This document shows positions 1-32,435 of a DNA stretch of 46,674 nucleotides, piece by piece. This DNA comes from an uncultured Gammaproteobacteria bacterium (GTDB lineage: Bacteria; Pseudomonadota; Gammaproteobacteria; UBA9214), in assembly GCA_963773065.1 (NCBI GenBank), contig CAVYZN010000007.1, positions 1 to 46,674 on the forward strand. The letters are read 5' to 3'. The notes beneath the pieces are model-generated. The model was not told where the DNA came from and did not search any database. It worked only from the letters and a program-made list of their open reading frames with translations. Made by a program: the position numbers and the translations under genes. Each line of letters starts with the position of its first letter. The first letter of the stretch is position 1.

Positions 1-20
1 AAGCATAGTGCAATCTGGCC

Positions 21-186
21 TCAGAACTCACGCAACTCGAACAGCGCGATCGACTCCACGTGCGCGATACGCGGGAACATGTCCATGACATCCGCGGCGA
101 GCAGCCAGTAACCGAACTCCTTGACCAGCCGGGCCGCATCGCGGGCGAGTGACCCGGGATGGCAGGAAACATAGACCACGCGAGCG
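21..186 (-). pseudogene. rlmD: Diverged duplicate of the rlmD 3' end
   Basis: 37-186 aligns without gaps to 3988-4137 (about 14 mismatches in 150 bp by manual count). It reads [54 protein letters not shown] versus ...[16 protein letters not shown] in the intact gene. Confidence 0.9.
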
Positions 187-539
187 AGCGGGGAGTATTT
201 CCTGCGCCGTTTGCAACGTCAATATCTTCTATCTTCAACTGCACGCACCCGGCTGACATCGAAGGAAGTCATTATCGCACGGGTTCCCAGAACGAAATTT
301 TAGCCCCTGTAAGCGCAGCTGCGGTGTTTGAAAAAATGATTCGTCGCCGGGATCACGGTACTCACAAAAAGCCGTTGGCGGGCTGCTTGCGGCTTATTTG
401 AATGCCTATAATGGCGGGCATGCCGCCATCACCGAAATAGACAAAATTGCAGAAAAACCTTGTCATGTACTTTTTTCAGTTTTTTGCTGAATAGTTACAT
501 TTCGTTTTCGAAAATAATCCTGGTTGCCCACCCTATAGC

Positions 540-2366
540 TCAATGGACAAAGGTATCGTACCAATTCTTGAGCACGAGTGCTCTCATTACGATCTTATCG
601 GCGCTCAAATATATAACTGGGCGAGCACGTTTCCGTGCCTTTGCTTTTGCAAGCAATCCGGGAGCAAGCATCTTCAGGCTTTGCTTTACAAGAGACTTCG
701 GATTTATCCATTGAGCAAGAACCGATTTATGCCGGCTCATTTTTCCCAGTGCCTCAATTATTTTTGTCAGAGCAACTGAGTCGAGGAATTCCCAAATTCC
801 ACTGGAACGATCATTCAGCTCTTCCAGGACATAATCCCTGACCGGAGTTTCTGCGGCCAATAATATGAGCCAATCCTCGAGGTTGTCTCGCTTGGCAAAG
901 GGAAATTGAGCTAGGTGCGGATATTCATGGAGAACCATTTTACGATAGAGCATTTTGTCGATCCGCATCGGATCGGGCACTTTGGCCAGGAAGTCGAGGA
1001 TCGCGTCGTCAAGCAATACATTCCGTTGATCCAACTCGATCTGTTTGTAATAGCTGGCGGTCTGAAGGTAGCATTGGAGTCGATGTGTGAAATAGAAGAA
1101 ATCCTTGGCCTGGTTGGGCGAGAGATCGCGCGCTTCGAACAAGGCTTTTTCAACAGCAGCATCCGAGGCATCACATAACTCATCATAGTGTGTTTCCCGA
1201 ATTACTGAAGCAAGACCCTGCATATCACGTAAGCGGCGCAATTTCGCAAGCGCAAAAGCCCCTTCGGTCGAGGATGCAGAAAGTGACCAGCCGAAAACTT
1301 CGTCCCCACGAAGCACGCGCTCAAAACCCCAATTGCGCAGTTCAACCATGATCTGGTATTCGTGGGGATGAAACGCGGAAATATCCGAGAGTCCGTCAAT
1401 CAGGTAATTGACGCGTGTGAAGTTTTCTCGATAATCTGTAATCTTGCGTTGTATGAATTTATGATTCGTATTTAAATGACGGGCGATCAAAGCAGCCACC
1501 GCCACATCCGAATCCTTATTCCCTTGACTTTCACCCCAGGTAACCGTATTTAGCTTCGTTCCATTGCCCTGGACACTTGCCAACACACCCCCGAGGATCC
1601 CACGAGAATCCACACCTCCAGACAAAAAGATGATCGTCTTATCGGGTTCCCCCATATGTTTTTGTGTGGCTGTCTTAAGTAATTGACCCAGTTCGTGCTC
1701 CAAATCAGCCTGAGAGGCTCCATCGGGCACTGACCCTGGCGAGTACCTCCAATACTTTTCCTTCACCAACCTTCCACTTTCGATTCTCAATAATTCACCA
1801 CCCTGAAGCCGTCTCACTGATCTGAAGAGGGTTTGATCACCCAGCAAATAACCCTGTGCCAGGAACGTCGCGAACGCTTCCGAATCAATTTCCCTGTTCA
1901 CAAGAAGACTGGCAAGCAAGACTTTCACCTCGGGTGCGAAGAGCAGTCGATCCTTGATCAGAGCATAATAGATTGGAAAAGAAGCCCTACGATCGACAAT
2001 GAGGAGAGTTGTGCCGTGACCAGGCTCTGTCAGTACCGCTGAGAAAAAGCCGCGCCAATGGCAAAGCGCGGAATTCTCCGGCATTTTGTTAATAGGCACA
2101 TTAGGCTCGCGTTCGAGCAATGAACCGGAGACGAATAAATGAATACCGGATTCTTTACCATCGAGGCGAATGGGCCACTCAAGCGGATTCTGCTTCGGTA
2201 AACCGACTCTGCCAACCAGCAGATTTGATGCCGTTATAGATGCCTGCTCTAACCGATCCTCCTCGTGGTGACGAAGAGCATCGGCCATTTTCGTGAAGAT
2301 AATCTTTCCCTCTTCCTCTGAAGTCGACTTAGGGTTTAGATCCAAAATTCCAAACAAACCAGGCAT
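540..2366 (-). CDS. Asparagine synthetase B-like amidotransferase/ATP pyrophosphatase family protein
   Basis: 608 aa ORF with an Ntn-like N-terminal region (DRRASFPIYY, FAPEVK), PP-loop LSGGVDS and GDEVFG motif. Starts MPGLFG with no N-terminal Cys. Visibly lower GC than the backbone. Confidence 0.8.
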   Translation of the reverse strand: MPGLFGILDLNPKSTSEEEGKIIFTKMADALRHHEEDRLEQASITASNLLVGRVGLPKQNPLEWPIRLDGKESGIHLFVSGSLLEREPNVPINKMPENSALCHWRGFFSAVLTEPGHGTTLLIVDRRASFPIYYALIKDRLLFAPEVKVLLASLLVNREIDSEAFATFLAQGYLLGDQTLFRSVRRLQGGELLRIESGRLVKEKYWRYSPGSVPDGASQADLEHELGQLLKTATQKHMGEPDKTIIFLSGGVDSRGILGGVLASVQGNGTKLNTVTWGESQGNKDSDVAVAALIARHLNTNHKFIQRKITDYRENFTRVNYLIDGLSDISAFHPHEYQIMVELRNWGFERVLRGDEVFGWSLSASSTEGAFALAKLRRLRDMQGLASVIRETHYDELCDASDAAVEKALFEARDLSPNQAKDFFYFTHRLQCYLQTASYYKQIELDQRNVLLDDAILDFLAKVPDPMRIDKMLYRKMVLHEYPHLAQFPFAKRDNLEDWLILLAAETPVRDYVLEELNDRSSGIWEFLDSVALTKIIEALGKMSRHKSVLAQWINPKSLVKQSLKMLAPGLLAKAKARKRARPVIYLSADKIVMRALVLKNWYDTFVH

Positions 2367-2387
2367 ATATTTTGCCTATCCTTTAAT

Positions 2388-3083
2388 TATAGGAACTATA
2401 AATACCCTTTTCCGAACGGGTCAAGGGGTAATCCACGGGGACCGGGAGGACAGTAGCTCCGCCACCGCCACGAAATCCCGCCAGGTCCCACCGGGCCGGA
2501 CGCGAAATCCGCTCACGTTCTGGCCGATCCCGGCGCGACAGCCAAGCACCGCTCTGCCGCTTTCTGACGAAAGTAGCCACAGGTGCAGGAGGCAAGCTGA
2601 CGAGGTATGCCGACCTGCCGCAGGCGGGGACGTCTATCGAACCGGCGGACGGGTGGCGCCCGCCCTTCGGGTATCAGGCCCCTCCCCTGCGGAGCGTCCT
2701 TCTGATCAAGGTGGGCGAGAATCTTGTTGATCACCACCGGATCTTCTCGGCTTCGGCATCCTGCGTCGCCCTACCTCGTACGTCCCTGCACTCGGATGCA
2801 GGCAAGAGCCTGCCCCGCGAGCGCAGCGAGTGCTTTGGGCATGATCCTGACGCGCCACCGCAAGCGTGGCAGGTTTCGATATCGATGTCGCCTAAAGCGC
2901 CTACTTTTGGCAAACACGCGTTTCAGTCGCTGCGCCTTTATGCCCTTTGGGTGCAGGTCATGGCCGTGCAGCGTTCGACGGGCGTTTTCTCTTCCCTATC
3001 CCTATCCGAATGACGCTTGTTTCCCTTGTCAGTTTGGCCGGTGTCACCCACGCACGGTGTTTGCTGTTCGGCGCGCACACGCC
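2388..3083 (-). mobile_element. IS91/ISCR rolling-circle element remnant (transposase C-terminus plus oriIS)
   Basis: Minus strand encodes GVCAPNSKHRAWVTPAK, KTPVER..AMTWAQRLKRVF, DIDIETCHACGG, IIACIEDPVVINKILAHL, PEGRAPP (interrupted). These match ISCR-type transposase C-terminal motifs. It ends in GAAAAGGGTATTTATAGTTCCTATA, like ISCR/IS91 oriIS. Confidence 0.85.
2395..2424 (-). promoter_or_regulatory. Putative outward-facing sigma70 promoter in oriIS, reading into the asnB-like gene
   Basis: TTGACC-N18-TATAGT on the minus strand, about 30 nt upstream of the ATG at 2366. Confidence 0.4.
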
Positions 3084-3085
3084 AA

Positions 3086-3222
3086 GTCACCACATGTGAT
3101 CATCTACTACCAGAGGCTTCAGCCACTTCGTTATCTCCATGACCGCTCCGATTGCTTCCGGCTGGAGCGGTAGCCGGATGGGACTCTCACCCACTGGGAA
3201 ACGCCGCCTTTGCACAGCGCAC
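3086..3222 (-). mobile_element. Truncated 5' end of a group II intron (domain I fragment)
   Basis: Begins GTGCG at 3222 and continues CTGTGCAAAGGCGGCG...AGTGGGTGAGAGTCCCATCCGGC...CGCTCCAGCCGGAAGCAATCGGAGCG...GGAGATAACGAAGTGGCTGAAGCC, resembling bacterial group II intron 5' ends. No RT ORF or domain V follows. Confidence 0.7.
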
Positions 3223-3316
3223 TACAAAGAAGAAAATATTGAGCCAAGATTCTGTTGCCGGTCAGGATGAATTGTTCTAAAAAGGGCTTTGAGACCCCGT
3301 TATCGAGGAACGAATT

Positions 3317-3520
3317 ATGACTGCGCCTGCCGAGGATATCCGCAAACGACTCCATGAATTGGCCGATCAATTGCCAGCCGATGCCACATGGGATGATGTC
3401 ATAGAGGAGGCACGGTTTCGCCGCGCCGTCGAGGCTGGTATTGCAGCGGCCGACCGCGGTGGCTTCGCTACCGAGGATGAACTGCGAACGACTTTTGCAA
3501 CCTGGGATGTCAAGATTTGA
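3317..3520 (+). CDS. Putative antitoxin of a RelE/ParE module
   Basis: 67 aa acidic ORF (LPADATWDDV...VEAGIAAADRG) with a GAGGA RBS; its stop overlaps the toxin start. Confidence 0.75.
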   Translation: MTAPAEDIRKRLHELADQLPADATWDDVIEEARFRRAVEAGIAAADRGGFATEDELRTTFATWDVKI

Positions 3521-3807
3521 AACTCCGCTGGACGCGACCTGCGTTGGCGGATTTGATCGAGGCCCAGGGCTTCATCGCGTTGGATAACCCGCAGATCGCT
3601 CAGGAGGTGGCGCAACGCGTGTGGGATGCGGCTTCATGCTTATGCGACAACCCGAATATCGGCAGGCTTGGTCACATTTCAGGTACGCACGAATGGGTAG
3701 TCACGCGCACGCCTTATCTCGTTGTATATCGGATCAAGGATGATGCAGTGGAAATTCTCCGGGTCTGGCATACGAAACGCGATTGGCGGAATGAGTCAAT
3801 TGAATGA
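3517..3807 (+). CDS. Type II toxin, RelE/ParE family
   Basis: MKLRWTRPALADL...NPNIGRLG...GTHEWVV..TPYLVVYRI....VEILRVWH is the ParE/RelE pattern. Confidence 0.88.
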   Translation: MKLRWTRPALADLIEAQGFIALDNPQIAQEVAQRVWDAASCLCDNPNIGRLGHISGTHEWVVTRTPYLVVYRIKDDAVEILRVWHTKRDWRNESIE

Positions 3808-3977
3808 TGTTTGGATCAATGGCGTTCCTATTGATCGTGGCAACGCGACAGATGGGCGTTACCAAGCCGCGCCGCCGCCCGGCAACGGCAACATGATCGC
3901 ATCCTTGCGATTTCCTCTTGCGCTTCAGACTGGCAGGCGTACAGGGTGTCGGCCAGCTTGTTGCCTGCCCCAGAACG

Positions 3978-5309
3978 CTAACGTGTTTCGAACAGCGCGA
4001 TCGACTCCACGTGCGCGGTATGCGGGAACATGTCCATGACGCCTGCCGCCAGCAGCCGGTAACCGAACTCATCGACCAGCCGGGCCGCGTCGCGGGCGAG
4101 CGAGCCCGGATGGCAGGAAACATAGACCACGCGAGCGGGCCGGATATTCCCCACGACATCCAGCGCCGCGGCCGCCCCGCTGCGCGGCGGATCCAGCAGG
4201 ATGCGCTCATAGGCCGCACCCGCCCAGGGCGCCTCGATCTGGCTCGCGGCGAGGTCGGCGAGATGAAACATCGCGTTCCCGATACCATTGCGGATGGCAT
4301 TGGCGCGGGCACGCGCTACCAGGCCGGCATCGCCCTCGACCCCCACCACCTCGGCGGCATGGCGCGCGAGCGGCAGGGTAAAATTGCCCAGCCCGCAGTA
4401 GAGGTCGAGCACGCGGTGGGTGCCGTCGAGTTCCAGCAGGCGCAGCACACGCTCCACCATCTGCCGGTTGATGGCGGTATTGATCTGGGTGAAGTCGGTG
4501 GGCCTGAATTCGATTGCTATGCCCTGTGCCGGCAGGGTGTAACTCAATGCCGAATCCTCGGGCCAGAGCGGGCGCACGCTGTCCGGTCCGCCCGGCTGCA
4601 GATAGACATGGAAACCCTGGTCACGGGCAAACTGCTTCAGCCTGTCCCGGTCCGCCTCAGCCAGCGGATCGAGGTGCCGGAAGACCAGCGCCGTGACGCA
4701 ATCGGTCACGGCCACTTCGACCTGGGGTATGCGTGACCTTGCCTGCAACTGGCCGATGAGACGGGCAATTTCGGGGATGCGCTCGCCGACGGACGGGTGC
4801 AGCACCTCGCAGCGCCGCAGGTCTGCCAGGTGGGAACTGTGCTTCTCGCGAAAGCCGACCAGCACGCGGCCCTTGCTACTGACATCCTTGATGCCCAGAC
4901 GCGCCTTGCCGCGGTAGCCCCATAGCGGACCGCCGAGCGGCGGCAGCACCTCATCCGGGGTCACCCTGCCGATGTGTTTCAGGTTATCCAGCAGCACCCG
5001 CTGCTTGGCGCTGATCTGTTCCCCGGCTTCCAGATGTTGCAGGCTGCAGCCGCCGCACACGCCGAAATGCGGACACCTCGGTTCGACCCGGTGCGGTGAC
5101 GGTTCATGCACTGCCCGGACCCGGGCCTCGTCGTAGTTGCGGTGTGTGGCCAGATAGTTGATAGCCACCGATTCACCGGGCAGGGCGCCGTCGATGAAGA
5201 CGGCCTTGCCGTCAATATGCGCCACCCCGCGGCCATCATGCGCGAGTGATTCCACGCCAACCCGTTCCGCGGGGTCAGGCAGGCGCTGCGTGCGACGGTG
5301 TCTGCCCAT
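3978..5309 (-). CDS. rlmD: 23S rRNA (uracil1939-C5)-methyltransferase
   Basis: TRAM domain, CPHFGVCGGC Fe-S motif, LDLYCGLGNF, LDPPRSG, YVSCHP, DMFPHTAHVE. Confidence 0.97.
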   Translation of the reverse strand: MGRHRRTQRLPDPAERVGVESLAHDGRGVAHIDGKAVFIDGALPGESVAINYLATHRNYDEARVRAVHEPSPHRVEPRCPHFGVCGGCSLQHLEAGEQISAKQRVLLDNLKHIGRVTPDEVLPPLGGPLWGYRGKARLGIKDVSSKGRVLVGFREKHSSHLADLRRCEVLHPSVGERIPEIARLIGQLQARSRIPQVEVAVTDCVTALVFRHLDPLAEADRDRLKQFARDQGFHVYLQPGGPDSVRPLWPEDSALSYTLPAQGIAIEFRPTDFTQINTAINRQMVERVLRLLELDGTHRVLDLYCGLGNFTLPLARHAAEVVGVEGDAGLVARARANAIRNGIGNAMFHLADLAASQIEAPWAGAAYERILLDPPRSGAAAALDVVGNIRPARVVYVSCHPGSLARDAARLVDEFGYRLLAAGVMDMFPHTAHVESIALFETR

Positions 5310-5350
5310 CACTCAAAGGGAAACGAATCCAGCGAAAAGGCCGAGGCGGA

Positions 5351-6127
5351 TCAGGCAGCCTGCCAGGCCTGGAGAAATTCCTGCAGGTGCGGCTTGTCCG
5401 CTTTCTGCAGTTCATCGCGCACCAGTTGACAGGCCTGCGCGTAGTCCGCGCCCGTCAGGTGCCCACGGACCAGCTCGAAACGCAGGTAGACCAGGTAGGT
5501 ATTGAGCACATCGGTTTCACAATAATTGCGGATGCCTTCGATAGCGCCGGCCTGATAACTGTCCCACACCTGCGCGCCGCTCATGCCCATCTTGCCCGGG
5601 AACCCGAGCAGCGTGGCAATCTCGTCCAGGCGGGCGACCGCGCGCGGCTGGTAGCCGGAGAGGACATCCATCAGGTCGGTGTGGCGTTCGTGATAGCGGC
5701 TCAGATAGTTGTTCCATTTGAAATCGCGGTCATCGCCCCCGGTATCCCAGTAACGGTGCGCCGCGATACCGTGCAGCAAACTGCGGTAATGCAGGACGGG
5801 CAGGTCGAAACCGGAACCATTCCAGGAAATCAGGGTCGGCGTGTAGCGTTCGATGCCGTCGAAGAAACGCCGGATCAGCTCCCCCTCGGGCGCATCCACC
5901 TCACCCAGTGACCAGACCTTGAACCGCTCCGGCGTTTGTAACACGACGGAAATCGCCACGATGCGGTGCAGGTGATGACGCAGGAATTCCGATCCGCCGG
6001 TCTCCTGCGCCCGCAGGTGGAACATGGCCGCCGCCACATTGCGGTCATCCAGGCCATCCAGCCGGTACAGCCGCCGGCCGTTCTCCACATCGGGAACCGT
6101 TTCGATGTCAAATACAAACAGGTTCAT
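5351..6127 (-). CDS. Predicted 3'-5' exonuclease, PolB-like exo domain
   Basis: FDIETVPD, SWNGSGFDLPVL, HTDLMD and YCETDV DEDDy motifs. Confidence 0.9.
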   Translation of the reverse strand: MNLFVFDIETVPDVENGRRLYRLDGLDDRNVAAAMFHLRAQETGGSEFLRHHLHRIVAISVVLQTPERFKVWSLGEVDAPEGELIRRFFDGIERYTPTLISWNGSGFDLPVLHYRSLLHGIAAHRYWDTGGDDRDFKWNNYLSRYHERHTDLMDVLSGYQPRAVARLDEIATLLGFPGKMGMSGAQVWDSYQAGAIEGIRNYCETDVLNTYLVYLRFELVRGHLTGADYAQACQLVRDELQKADKPHLQEFLQAWQAA

Positions 6128-6169: not shown

Positions 6170-6377
6170 CAGGAATTATGCCGTCAATAACAGACGGCTG
6201 ATGCCGGGCAAGTCCTGTAGATGACCGTCGGCCGCAGGGACGATGCACAGGGATGTGCAAGTGTCGCGTGAGGGCAGGATGCCCGGAGCGACTGCGGCCG
6301 TCGAGCTTACAGGGATGTATTCACAGCGTGTCACGGAAGGACTTGTCCGGCATAAGCTATTGGCACCGTAATACCTG
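6170..6377. repeat. About 200-bp nested imperfect palindrome (MITE/REPIN-like) with GGA-loop hairpins
   Basis: Inverted arms ATGCCGGGCAAGTCCT (6201-6216) / AGGACTTGTCCGGCAT (6338-6353). Inner arms CGGCCGCAG / CTGCGGCCG. Hairpin loops AGGGAT and AGGAT. Confidence 0.7.
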
Positions 6378-25887: not shown

Positions 25888-25957
25888 TGTAGAAGCGGCC
25901 TTGGCCGCGAAGGGTCTCCGATCAGCAGCGTTGTTCGCGGGCAAGCCCGCTCCTACA
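25888..25957. repeat. REP doublet (GTAG family)
   Basis: TGTAGAAGCGGCCTTGGCCGCGAA ... TTCGCGGGCAAGCCCGCTCCTACA inverted pair. Confidence 0.8.
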
Positions 25958-32114: not shown

Positions 32115-32435
32115 AGGGTCATAAAGGGTCGATTGATTTCATCGTAGTGATCAATTTGGCCATTGAATTACCGGAATCAATCGAGTCTGACCCCACGGTA
32201 GCTTGGCGATTGCGCGAGATAGGTGCAGGTGCGAATTTATTCGCACGTACTGGACGATACGGCAAACGTGCGAATAAATTCGCACCTACGGGAGATGGAA
32301 ACGCAGTAATTGGGGCAGATTCATTTTTCAGGAAAATAAATCTGAGAATCACCTTTTCGATCATTTCCCGTTTTTGGTCGATCATCTCAGCGTTACATCG
32401 CTGGCAGTTGCGCAATGCTGGTAAATTCGCACCTA
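32115..32435. repeat. Cluster of palindromic intergenic repeats including a REP doublet
   Basis: GGGTC..GATTGATT / AATCAATCGAGTCTGACCCC (32115-32194). GCAGGTGCGAATTTATTCGCACG / CGTGCGAATAAATTCGCACCTAC (32225-32289) with a partial copy at 32422-32435. CAGATTCATTTT / AAAATAAATCTG (32316-32344). Confidence 0.75.

Follow-up and report, generated by a model that had tools for sequence, protein, structure and literature searches.

The window analysed here is a stretch of 46,674 nucleotides of contig 7 from the genome of an uncultured gammaproteobacterium (3.84 Mb, 33 contigs), and it begins at the contig end. Close to its start, on the minus strand, lies the 3' part of a transposase gene of the IS91 family of insertion sequences (IS), similar to those of ISCR2 and ISVsa3, in which four small blocks of 17, 22, 36 and 48 nt are embedded (Table 1). 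These blocks, referred to as inserts, are the subject of this work. As reference for the coding sequence we used, in a local alignment, the last 135 codons of L013, an uninterrupted foreign homologue that encodes the 498-residue protein P0002. In addition, tblastn with the copy on contig 28 of the same genome, a 332-residue open reading frame (ORF), matched the window at positions 3083-3036, 3027-2833 and 2953-2651. The homology begins only at around residue 385 of P0002 and ends near position 2640, so that about the last 115 codons plus the inserts are present and the 5' side is truncated.

Once the four blocks are set aside, the C-terminal tail typical of IS91 transposases, WAQRLKRVF.IDIE.C..CGG...IIACIEDP.VI.KIL.HL..RAPP, can be recognised in the window, and it can be aligned with L013/P0002 as well as with the IS91 copies of contigs 28, 32 and 6; it is also similar to the tail of the protein P0122. 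The minus strand without the four blocks reads AMTWAQRLKRVFDIDIETCHACGGA and then, one frame over, RIIACIEDPVVINKILAHLDQKDAP. A 1-nt deletion in the CGGA(V) codons is seen relative to L013 and, as a gap, relative to the copy on contig 32. The missing G of an earlier reading of the window, hereafter the original prediction, is thus upheld as a deletion, although which base was lost cannot be told. A search of the genome with the Pfam profile PF04986 (Y2_Tnp) gave matches on contigs 28, 30, 32 and 9 and none in the window, and neither the HUH and Y2 parts nor the zinc-binding part of the protein (PF04986, PF14319) is encoded there. Since Y2_Tnp is unmatched in the window and the homology starts only at around residue 385, we consider this feature a relic and not a gene.

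Table 1. Coordinates of the IS91 relic and its inserts, and occupancy of the five insertion sites (A to E) in the IS91 copies of the same genome; ^ marks the insertion point, and 32a and 32b are the two copies on contig 32.
Feature	Position	Strand	Place in the gene	Copies with the site filled	Basis
3' relic of an ISCR2/ISVsa3-like IS91-family transposase gene	2640..3083	-			tblastn, alignment to L013, C-terminal tail
17-nt insert (CACCCAAAGGGCATAAA)	2937..2953	-	within the Trp codon of MTW^AQRL (site A, MT^W)	window, 32a	
22-nt insert (CCAAAAGTAGGCGCTTTAGGC plus one G at either end)	2890..2911	-	between RVF and DIDIE (site B, RVF^DIDIE)	window, 32b, 6	
1-nt deletion	2852..2853	-	CGGA(V) codons		alignment to L013 (reference nt 259-260)
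36-nt insert, member of a 28/36-nt family	2805..2840	-	in (V)RI^IACIEDP (site C, RI^IACI)	36-mer in window, 28, 32a, 32b; different insert in 6	
48-nt insert	2747..2794	-	between ACI and EDP (site D, ACI^EDP)	window, 32a, 6	
28-nt form of the 36-mer			site E, EDPVV^I.KIL	32a, 32b	

The alignment to L013 recovered the four inserts within 1 nt of the positions originally proposed, and leaving them out reproduces the peptide of the original prediction. Their boundaries are ambiguous by 0-1 nt: the 22-nt block, for instance, was aligned at 2891-2912, 2890-2911 being equally good, and the aligner split the 36-nt block, within 2801-2840. No direct repeat longer than 1 nt flanks any of the four, which agrees with the lack of an obvious target duplication in the original reading, and none of the 11 aligned foreign homologues contains any of these blocks. 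A further 16-nt extra block at 2995-3010 falls in a linker that varies naturally in length and was not counted as an insert. Stop codons are introduced by the 17-mer and the 48-mer, whereas the 36-mer has none in any of its six frames. The proposal that several inserts form hairpins was not borne out. When DNA folds were compared with those of shuffled sequences, z scores of 0.19 and 0.06 (36-mer), 0.83 (17-mer) and -0.42 and 0.12 (48-mer) were obtained, and only the 22-mer leans towards a hairpin (z = -1.39). By inspection of the ends of all four units, their termini are not reverse complements, as those of MITEs, the miniature transposable elements with inverted repeats, are. A possible fifth insert had been suggested at 2599-2634; no other copy of at least 21 nt of it occurs in the genome, and it cannot be supported as an insert because the coding homology stops near 2640.

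All four inserts recur elsewhere in the same genome. The 17-mer has a single other copy (17/17), at the same site of an IS91 relic on contig 32, and is found with one mismatch, in another context, in one of 40 relatives. Nine copies of the 22-mer are present, namely, three at site B, one at another IS91 site, and the rest nested in units that resemble repetitive extragenic palindromic (REP) sequences. The five copies of the 36-mer all lie in IS91 relics, one of them inverted at a different site, and in the 332-residue ORF of contig 28 the unit is in frame. As for the 48-mer, 29 related matches were found genome-wide, and 35 for a relative, U2 (GGAGGTAGGGTAACGCAGGAGCAGTTACCGAGGA). Seven IS91 remnants exist in this genome (contigs 7, 28, 32 (two), 6, 30 and 9), none of them intact, and the longest IS91 ORF lacks the region of the HUH motif. 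Five of the remnants include the C-terminal tail and carry differing subsets of inserts at the five sites of Table 1, a combinatorial pattern that is at odds with a simple tree. The same inserts occupy the same codons of independent IS91 copies, a point that the original prediction had singled out for checking, both in this genome and in metagenome loci. Blocks that recur as defined units in this way are not indels of decay. In copy 32a the 36-mer is also present at a sixth place, inverted and in frame (YR[..]GTTH), and an inverted, in-frame 36-mer was also seen at that same place (YRE[..]GTTH) in P0122 and P0124. A related insert of 12-13 residues (APKTLA.LAGWAL) was seen in frame in the metagenome proteins P0124 and P0128 at a further IS91 site, RLAAL^VPKPR.

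Among the four, the 36-mer is unusual. Its unit (GCCCAAAGCACT..GGGGCAGGCTCT) carries neither a GTAG nor a CGTC tag and is not palindromic, and the same holds for the 17-nt unit. A two-arm pattern built on it finds a 36-nt and a 28-nt form, the conserved TCT tail being counted and the length of 28 resulting from our reading of the site-E junctions. Among genomes, the pattern occurs in seven of the 24 others of the same taxonomic family and in none of 16 outside it, and a reversed control pattern matches nowhere; 11 of the 12 matches in genomes of the family are in IS91 remnants. Among metagenomes, 115 stretches were matched, 80 of which were fetched; across the 87 loci that were read there are 89 instances, and these fall into 73 distinct contexts, as defined by 25+25 nt of flank. 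These flanks were classed by blastx against P0002 and, for the remaining contexts, by Pfam searches that covered 150 of the 155 ORFs nearby; the five left out belong to L134, likely a chance match.

In 39 of the 73 contexts the unit is forward in an IS91 gene, nearly always with residue 454 (site C) or residue 463 (site E) immediately before it, and both length forms are present at both sites. Three more contexts have it inverted at residue 427/428, just before the Met of MTWAQ, and one has it in the zinc-binding domain. Two contexts show a single unit with the left flank of site C and the right flank of site E, an arrangement seen at three metagenome loci (L117, L141, L158) and with nine codons lost, as expected for a deletion by recombination between two resident copies. 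Pfam placed six further contexts in other transposase genes, namely, four of IS3 type, one DDE_Tnp_1 and one DUF772, the DUF772 domain being split exactly at the unit. In total, blastx or Pfam assigns 48 of the 73 contexts to transposase genes, and around six more belong there by eye (four look-alikes of site E, and two that we take from their motifs to be an IS3 OrfA and a Y1 transposase gene). Six contexts are beside ordinary genes, outside them, and by blastx and Pfam no unit was found inside an ordinary protein-coding gene in the 73 contexts. The insert is in frame, as 12 residues, in the full-length ORFs P0017 (507 residues) and P0129 (509 residues), and also in P0058.

A short target emerges from these junctions. 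In 80 uninterrupted ISCR2-like loci the empty sites read GTC AT^C GCC (site C) and GTG AT^C AAG (site E), both of which are Val-Ile pairs. Of the 25 contexts outside these two sites, 23 have T at position -1 and 24 have A or G at position -2; on the other side, GGGGCAGGC is followed by Y, then C (24/25) and T (20/25), which we take as the unit's own tail. To the left of the unit there is always ..RT, in most cases GT(C/G)AT, and this left flank alone carries a short conserved motif; the orientation of the unit follows this motif and not the gene. Such motifs are common, with 9-10 GTSAT per IS91 gene and 7,260 GTSATC in the genome of the window. A conserved target motif explains that the same codons are hit, but neither the dominance of two of about ten motifs nor the high frequency of hits in IS91 genes. 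The real target may be longer than the motif, or else survivorship selects between sites, and survivorship would account for both the site dominance and the frequency of IS91.

Evidence for recent movement comes from two IS91 proteins. P0058 (392 residues, with an insert at site E) and P0056 (380 residues, with none) agree at 377 of the 380 residues that they share and differ, among gaps, by the 12-residue insert alone; their clusters have members on up to 17 and on 13 contigs, respectively. For such near-identical proteins to differ in this way, the unit must have been gained, or precisely lost, recently. We also placed the carriers on a FastTree phylogeny of 121 IS91 proteins (last 300 residues, insert columns gap-trimmed, 11 of the 132 stored proteins left out for being shorter than 290 residues). 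In the search for IS91-family relatives 7863 passed E<=1e-5, of which 120 were considered. The seven carriers need five changes on this tree, at least three of which are forced by well-supported branches; shuffled labels need 6.9 on average, and three of 500 shuffles were as low as five. On this protein tree, carriage of the insert is therefore both clustered and polyphyletic.

The 48-mer and the 22-mer follow a different distribution. In the 48-mer, which is REP-like, a CGACTGCAGGGATG-like unit comes first and GGTAGGGCGACGCAGGATGCCGAAGCCGA second, and this composite contains a GTAG tag (GGTAGGGCGAC). Its relatives in the genome have a 6-bp stem, GGTAAC/GTTACC, whereas the window copy folds no better than shuffled sequence. 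These 29-35 matches form intergenic mosaics at several places, often within a MITE-like element with ends TTCACCGCAAAGACGCAAAG and beside CTCACTT heptamer arrays. The 22-mer splits GGTAGGGYA^ACGCAGGAGCAGTTACC units, between GGTAGGGYA and ACGCAGG, at 5-6 intergenic places of the genome, and the same nesting was seen in 22 of 29 instances fetched from relatives; in relatives it was seen, too, at site B of an IS91 gene from another genus (L235) and at six places unrelated to it. It is present in 18 of 24 other genomes of the taxonomic family and in none of 16 genomes from other families of the class. The corresponding figures for the 3' unit of the 48-mer are 9 of 24 and none of 16, this unit being common in two other genera and found in none of four genomes of the window's own genus. 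None of 26 copies of the 48-mer unit fetched from relatives is in an IS91 gene, and neither is the copy on contig 5 of the same genome; in relatives the unit sits in mosaics or in a hairpin loop. Enrichment in mobile DNA, as originally proposed, does not hold for these two families, which are mostly parts of ordinary intergenic mosaics, an outcome that the original prediction had itself named as speaking against it.

Several observations on these repeats are worth recording. Units of U2 type are in frame at the same position of two diverged DDE transposase ORFs of the genome, IS1634/IS4-like by eye (C27:37580-39421, 614 residues; C11:222755-224587, 611 residues), both with a 17-residue REP-like unit at IEAHIF.[..]FLAYC. 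By eye, too, an hsdR-like ORF (type I restriction; C14:157174-158547) has a REP-like unit in frame, FIVF[..]DEGGGKLIKKMAGYHQF, with a second one about 500 nt further on that breaks the frame, and a Ser/Thr-kinase-like ORF (C16:92541-94145) has one in frame in a linker. Long ORFs that span repeat matches are mostly artefacts of high GC content, and these four are the ones that look real by eye. The 14-mers of the MITE-like TTCACCGCAAAGACGCAAAG element occur 68, 36 and 21 times, and its interior is a variable patchwork of micro-units (examples at C18:440-610, C21:23100-23400 and C9:178300-178560); some of these elements are adjoined by the CTCACTT tandem arrays (about 90 14-mer matches). Poly-A and poly-C 14-mers occur 394 and 195 times; for a genome rich in GC these counts are strange, and they may be artefacts of contig ends or of the assembly. 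In the window itself, intergenic repeats are found at 6222-6306, 25933-25957 and 32176-32435, namely, one CAGGGATG-type mosaic and two GTAG-tagged palindromes, GTAGGAGCGGGCTTGCCCGCGAAC and GTAGGTGCGAATTTATTCGCACG (an inverted pair). No such repeats were seen within the housekeeping genes of the window, as the original prediction had remarked.

Our reading is that copies of non-autonomous mobile repeats of very small size (17-51 nt), from three or more unrelated families, have entered a dead transposase fragment, and we put the probability of this reading at about 0.7. That they are tiny non-autonomous elements had been proposed from the outset, and the recurrence of insert families in the same genome, in relatives and in metagenomes speaks for it. 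We infer that the units move as single strands through an HUH transposase (Y1, similar to those of IS200/IS605 or to REP-associated tyrosine transposases, RAYTs) supplied in trans, which would explain both the absent target duplication and the short motif on one side only. Their pile-up in transposase genes may have several sources: such genes would tolerate units, and a 36-nt insert free of stop codons preserves the frame; the target motif is conserved in IS91 genes; and insert-bearing IS copies may have multiplied and been carried between genomes, taking the unit along. An in-frame insert near the C-terminus may leave the transposase working, such that the IS keeps spreading with the unit. 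In this window the inserts are probably without function, passengers in a dead gene.

Several results weigh against this reading. Ten Y1_Tnp matches above the cut-off were found in the genome by profile search, so that Y1 genes do co-occur with the inserts, a point that had been suggested for checking, but scans of the flanks of these ten places showed none flanked by insert units, and mobilisation by such an enzyme stays conjectural. The flanks bear other repeats (GGGGACATTCTGG, GGGGGACAGACC, GGGGTCAGGTC), and the one unit found near a Y1_Tnp-type match, on contig 27, is beside a sub-threshold hit of 20 bits. Known Y1 substrates are hairpins, and the units fold no better than shuffled sequence. 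The two copies of the 17-mer are both at the same IS91 site, which fits copying between IS91 relics better than two independent insertions. Only two of the 9-10 GTSAT motifs of each IS91 gene take most of the insertions. Moreover, our pattern required exact arms taken from an IS91-borne copy, so that diverged copies are missed and the share of transposase genes may be inflated. Finally, inserts shared between copies in the genome are 95-100% identical (17/17; 36/36 twice; 35/36; 42/44), as compared with 70-78% for the coding DNA of the same copies, but this contrast is weakened by the coding DNA near the inserts, which is about 90% alike between the window and the contig-32 copy; we therefore base recent mobility on P0058 and P0056 instead.

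A rival explanation is that the units are not mobile at all, each having entered an ancestral IS91 element once and then been distributed by descent together with recombination or gene conversion. The 17-mer, confined to one site of two IS91 relics, fits such a history, as does the 90% likeness of the coding DNA next to the inserts, and the hybrids at L117, L141 and L158 show that recombination between inserts does occur. It is difficult to reconcile, however, with a 36-mer that is found at no fewer than five different IS91 places, in both orientations, and also in IS3, IS4 and DUF772-type genes and in intergenic DNA, or with 22- and 48-mers that are mostly outside IS91. Nor does it sit well with the combinatorial presence and absence at sites A to E in five copies of one genome, with carriers scattered on the protein tree, or with a 99% identical pair that differs by the insert alone; for three of the four inserts, the same unit has already been seen at clearly non-homologous sites. 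We thus regard one-time entry as unlikely, and about as unlikely is active targeting, whereby single-stranded DNA that IS91 and other elements expose in rolling-circle or copy-out transposition draws the units in, or the HUH enzyme of IS91 moves them near its own gene. The figures of 48 of 73 contexts in transposase genes and 11 of 12 matches in IS91 remnants, with none inside an ordinary coding gene, would suit it. Yet IS3, IS4 and IS5-type elements are not known to use long single-stranded intermediates; the 22- and 48-nt families prefer intergenic mosaics; all IS91 copies of the genome are defective, even the longest ORF being without the HUH region; and ascertainment, hitch-hiking and survivorship could yield the same bias. 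Attraction by single-stranded intermediates of mobile DNA may occur but is not needed. The preference for mobile DNA put forward originally survives as a bias of the 36-nt family to transposase genes, and this bias is explained equally well by the motif, by tolerance and by hitch-hiking.

That the inserts might be removable sequences, or part of a mechanism that silences the element, had also been raised, and nothing points there. Translational bypass elements do exist in a yeast mitochondrion, and functional intervening sequences of this sort, excised at the RNA or DNA level or passed over in translation in a gene that still works, could be suspected from lengths that add up to 123 nt, a multiple of three (17+22 = 39, then 36 and 48), and from a 36-mer that preserves the frame. 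We hold this to be very improbable. The catalytic part of the gene is wholly missing and there is an additional 1-nt deletion; the 17-mer and the 48-mer bring in stops; no take-off and landing codon pairs are visible; and an Rfam scan of positions 1-6000 found no RNA family in 2747-2953, its hits being a group II intron fragment at 3062-3196 and one Cyano-2 match below threshold. Among public sequencing runs none contains the stretch, the best holding 0.19 of the sampled words, and in contigs from four runs (three of DNA, one of RNA), which cover only 2730-2839 (a piece of the 48-mer and 36-mer, with 0-4 differences) and the group II intron fragment, no joined, insert-free form was seen, a cover too small to speak for or against excision or expression. 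Ordinary decay, in which the blocks are random insertions of an old pseudogene, has in its favour that the relic bears other damage. It is refuted by the recurrence of the blocks as units: all four recur in the genome, and three also do so in other genomes with conserved ends.

How much of this is new requires comparison with known small repeats. An undescribed system, as first claimed, is too strong a description, since in-frame small repeats in genes, transposase genes included, are already known (PMC2229807, PMC3733652), namely, as Correia elements, Rickettsia palindromic elements (RPEs) and intragenic REPs. In Delihas 2007 (PMC2229807), the 107-bp form of the Correia (NEMIS) element, RPEs and ORF-carrying MITEs are described as small repeats fused in frame in protein genes, three classes of transposase genes being among the hosts of the 107-bp form; these elements are of 100-170 bp and have terminal inverted repeats, long stem-loops and, in several cases, TA target duplications. 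The 36-mer resembles Correia elements and RPEs in having no stop in the frames in which it is read and in being fused, with the frame kept, to genes that are otherwise intact, and it differs in that the 28/36-nt unit is three to five times smaller and lacks inverted termini, a better-than-shuffle fold and a duplication. REPs with a GTAG tag are given by Di Nocera et al. 2013 (PMC3733652) as units of 20-40 bp that cluster in mosaics and are sometimes in frame inside genes, with REPs at about the same recB site in two Xanthomonas species. Our 48-mer and its U2 relatives (GTAGGGTAAC..GTTACC) are like REPs and BIMEs (the interspersed mosaic elements of bacteria) in their GTAG tag, their mosaics and their in-frame copies in four ORFs, but no cognate RAYT flanked by units was found at the ten Y1_Tnp places and the stem of the window 48-mer is degraded; the 36/28-nt and 17-nt units differ from such REPs further in lacking a GTAG/CGTC tag and in not being palindromic.

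Two other kinds of element deserve mention. The small dispersed repeats (SDRs) of heterocyst-forming cyanobacteria, which Elhai et al. reportedly presented in 2008, are said to be of about 20 nt, thought to be mobile, mutually nested and near heptamer tandem repeats. What we see is similar in the nesting of very small repeats and in the CTCACTT heptamer arrays beside the mosaics of the genome, and different in phylum and sequences; we know of no link of SDRs to transposase genes or to fixed codon positions. Elements of the IS200/IS605 group produce no target duplication and insert directly 3' of a short motif, e.g. TTAC or TTGAT, which stays on one side of the element only, and they and their derivatives need subterminal hairpins at both ends and measure 100 bp or more. 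The 28/36-nt family, which inserts without duplication after T(C/G)AT or RT, appears to resemble that group in this, whereas 28 nt can accommodate no more than one weak stem of 5 bp (TGCCC/GGGCA). As for introns, inteins and bypass elements, neither an RNA family in 2747-2953 nor joints in the run contigs, within their partial cover, were found. In the literature searched, whose coverage leaves most subscription journals outside, no description of the 28/36-nt unit in IS91 genes was found. What is new relative to the precedents is a 36/28-nt family that is smaller, has no inverted ends, fold or duplication, uses a short target and occupies fixed IS91 codons across many samples.

The 5' break of the relic is adjoined by a group II intron fragment (Rfam group-II-D1D4-4, 3062-3196, minus strand), found in the Rfam scan with 67.5 bits against a gathering score of 49 and over the whole model; neither a maturase ORF nor a domain V/VI match lies close to it, and contigs of sediment metagenomes and metatranscriptomes hold related sequences in abundance. 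The 3' end of rlmD is duplicated, a 52-residue ORF at 21-179 resembling the C-terminus of the full gene at 3978-5312 (window 1-180 and 3978-4140). The 3.8 kb between the two contain, besides the IS91 relic and the group II fragment, a gene similar to those of asparagine synthases (540-2366, minus strand) and, at 3317-3807, a gene for a toxin of ParE type with a small ORF upstream of it. This region has the appearance of an island inserted in the end of rlmD.

A bolder view of the 28/36-nt unit is possible, if doubtful, namely, that among mobile DNA with sequence specificity it is the smallest yet seen in bacteria, and that it is specialised as a parasite of IS elements, using GT(C/G)AT^C sites. 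The Val-Ile codons of these sites would have to be kept by the host gene, and a unit that keeps the frame and has no stops may spare the activity of the transposase; it would ride on IS91, and sometimes on IS3, IS4 and IS5-type elements, between the genomes of sediment bacteria. In a still bolder form, the HUH transposase of IS91 itself would move the unit, and the hits in the zinc-finger tail would then be a by-product of an enzyme acting beside its own gene.

Mobile DNA is usually thought to need two recognisable ends of tens of bases. A unit of 28-36 nt that is found at the same codon of diverged genes, and that separates near-identical alleles, lowers that size limit. Together with its GTSAT flank, the unit is a concrete substrate with which to ask which enzyme moves very small repeats, a question that also arises for REPs. 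For annotation, it means that units of this kind break or lengthen genes of these bacteria, those for transposases and others. They also record earlier hosts of an IS, as with the 3' unit of the 48-mer, which is common in two other genera and was found in none of four genomes of the window's own genus.

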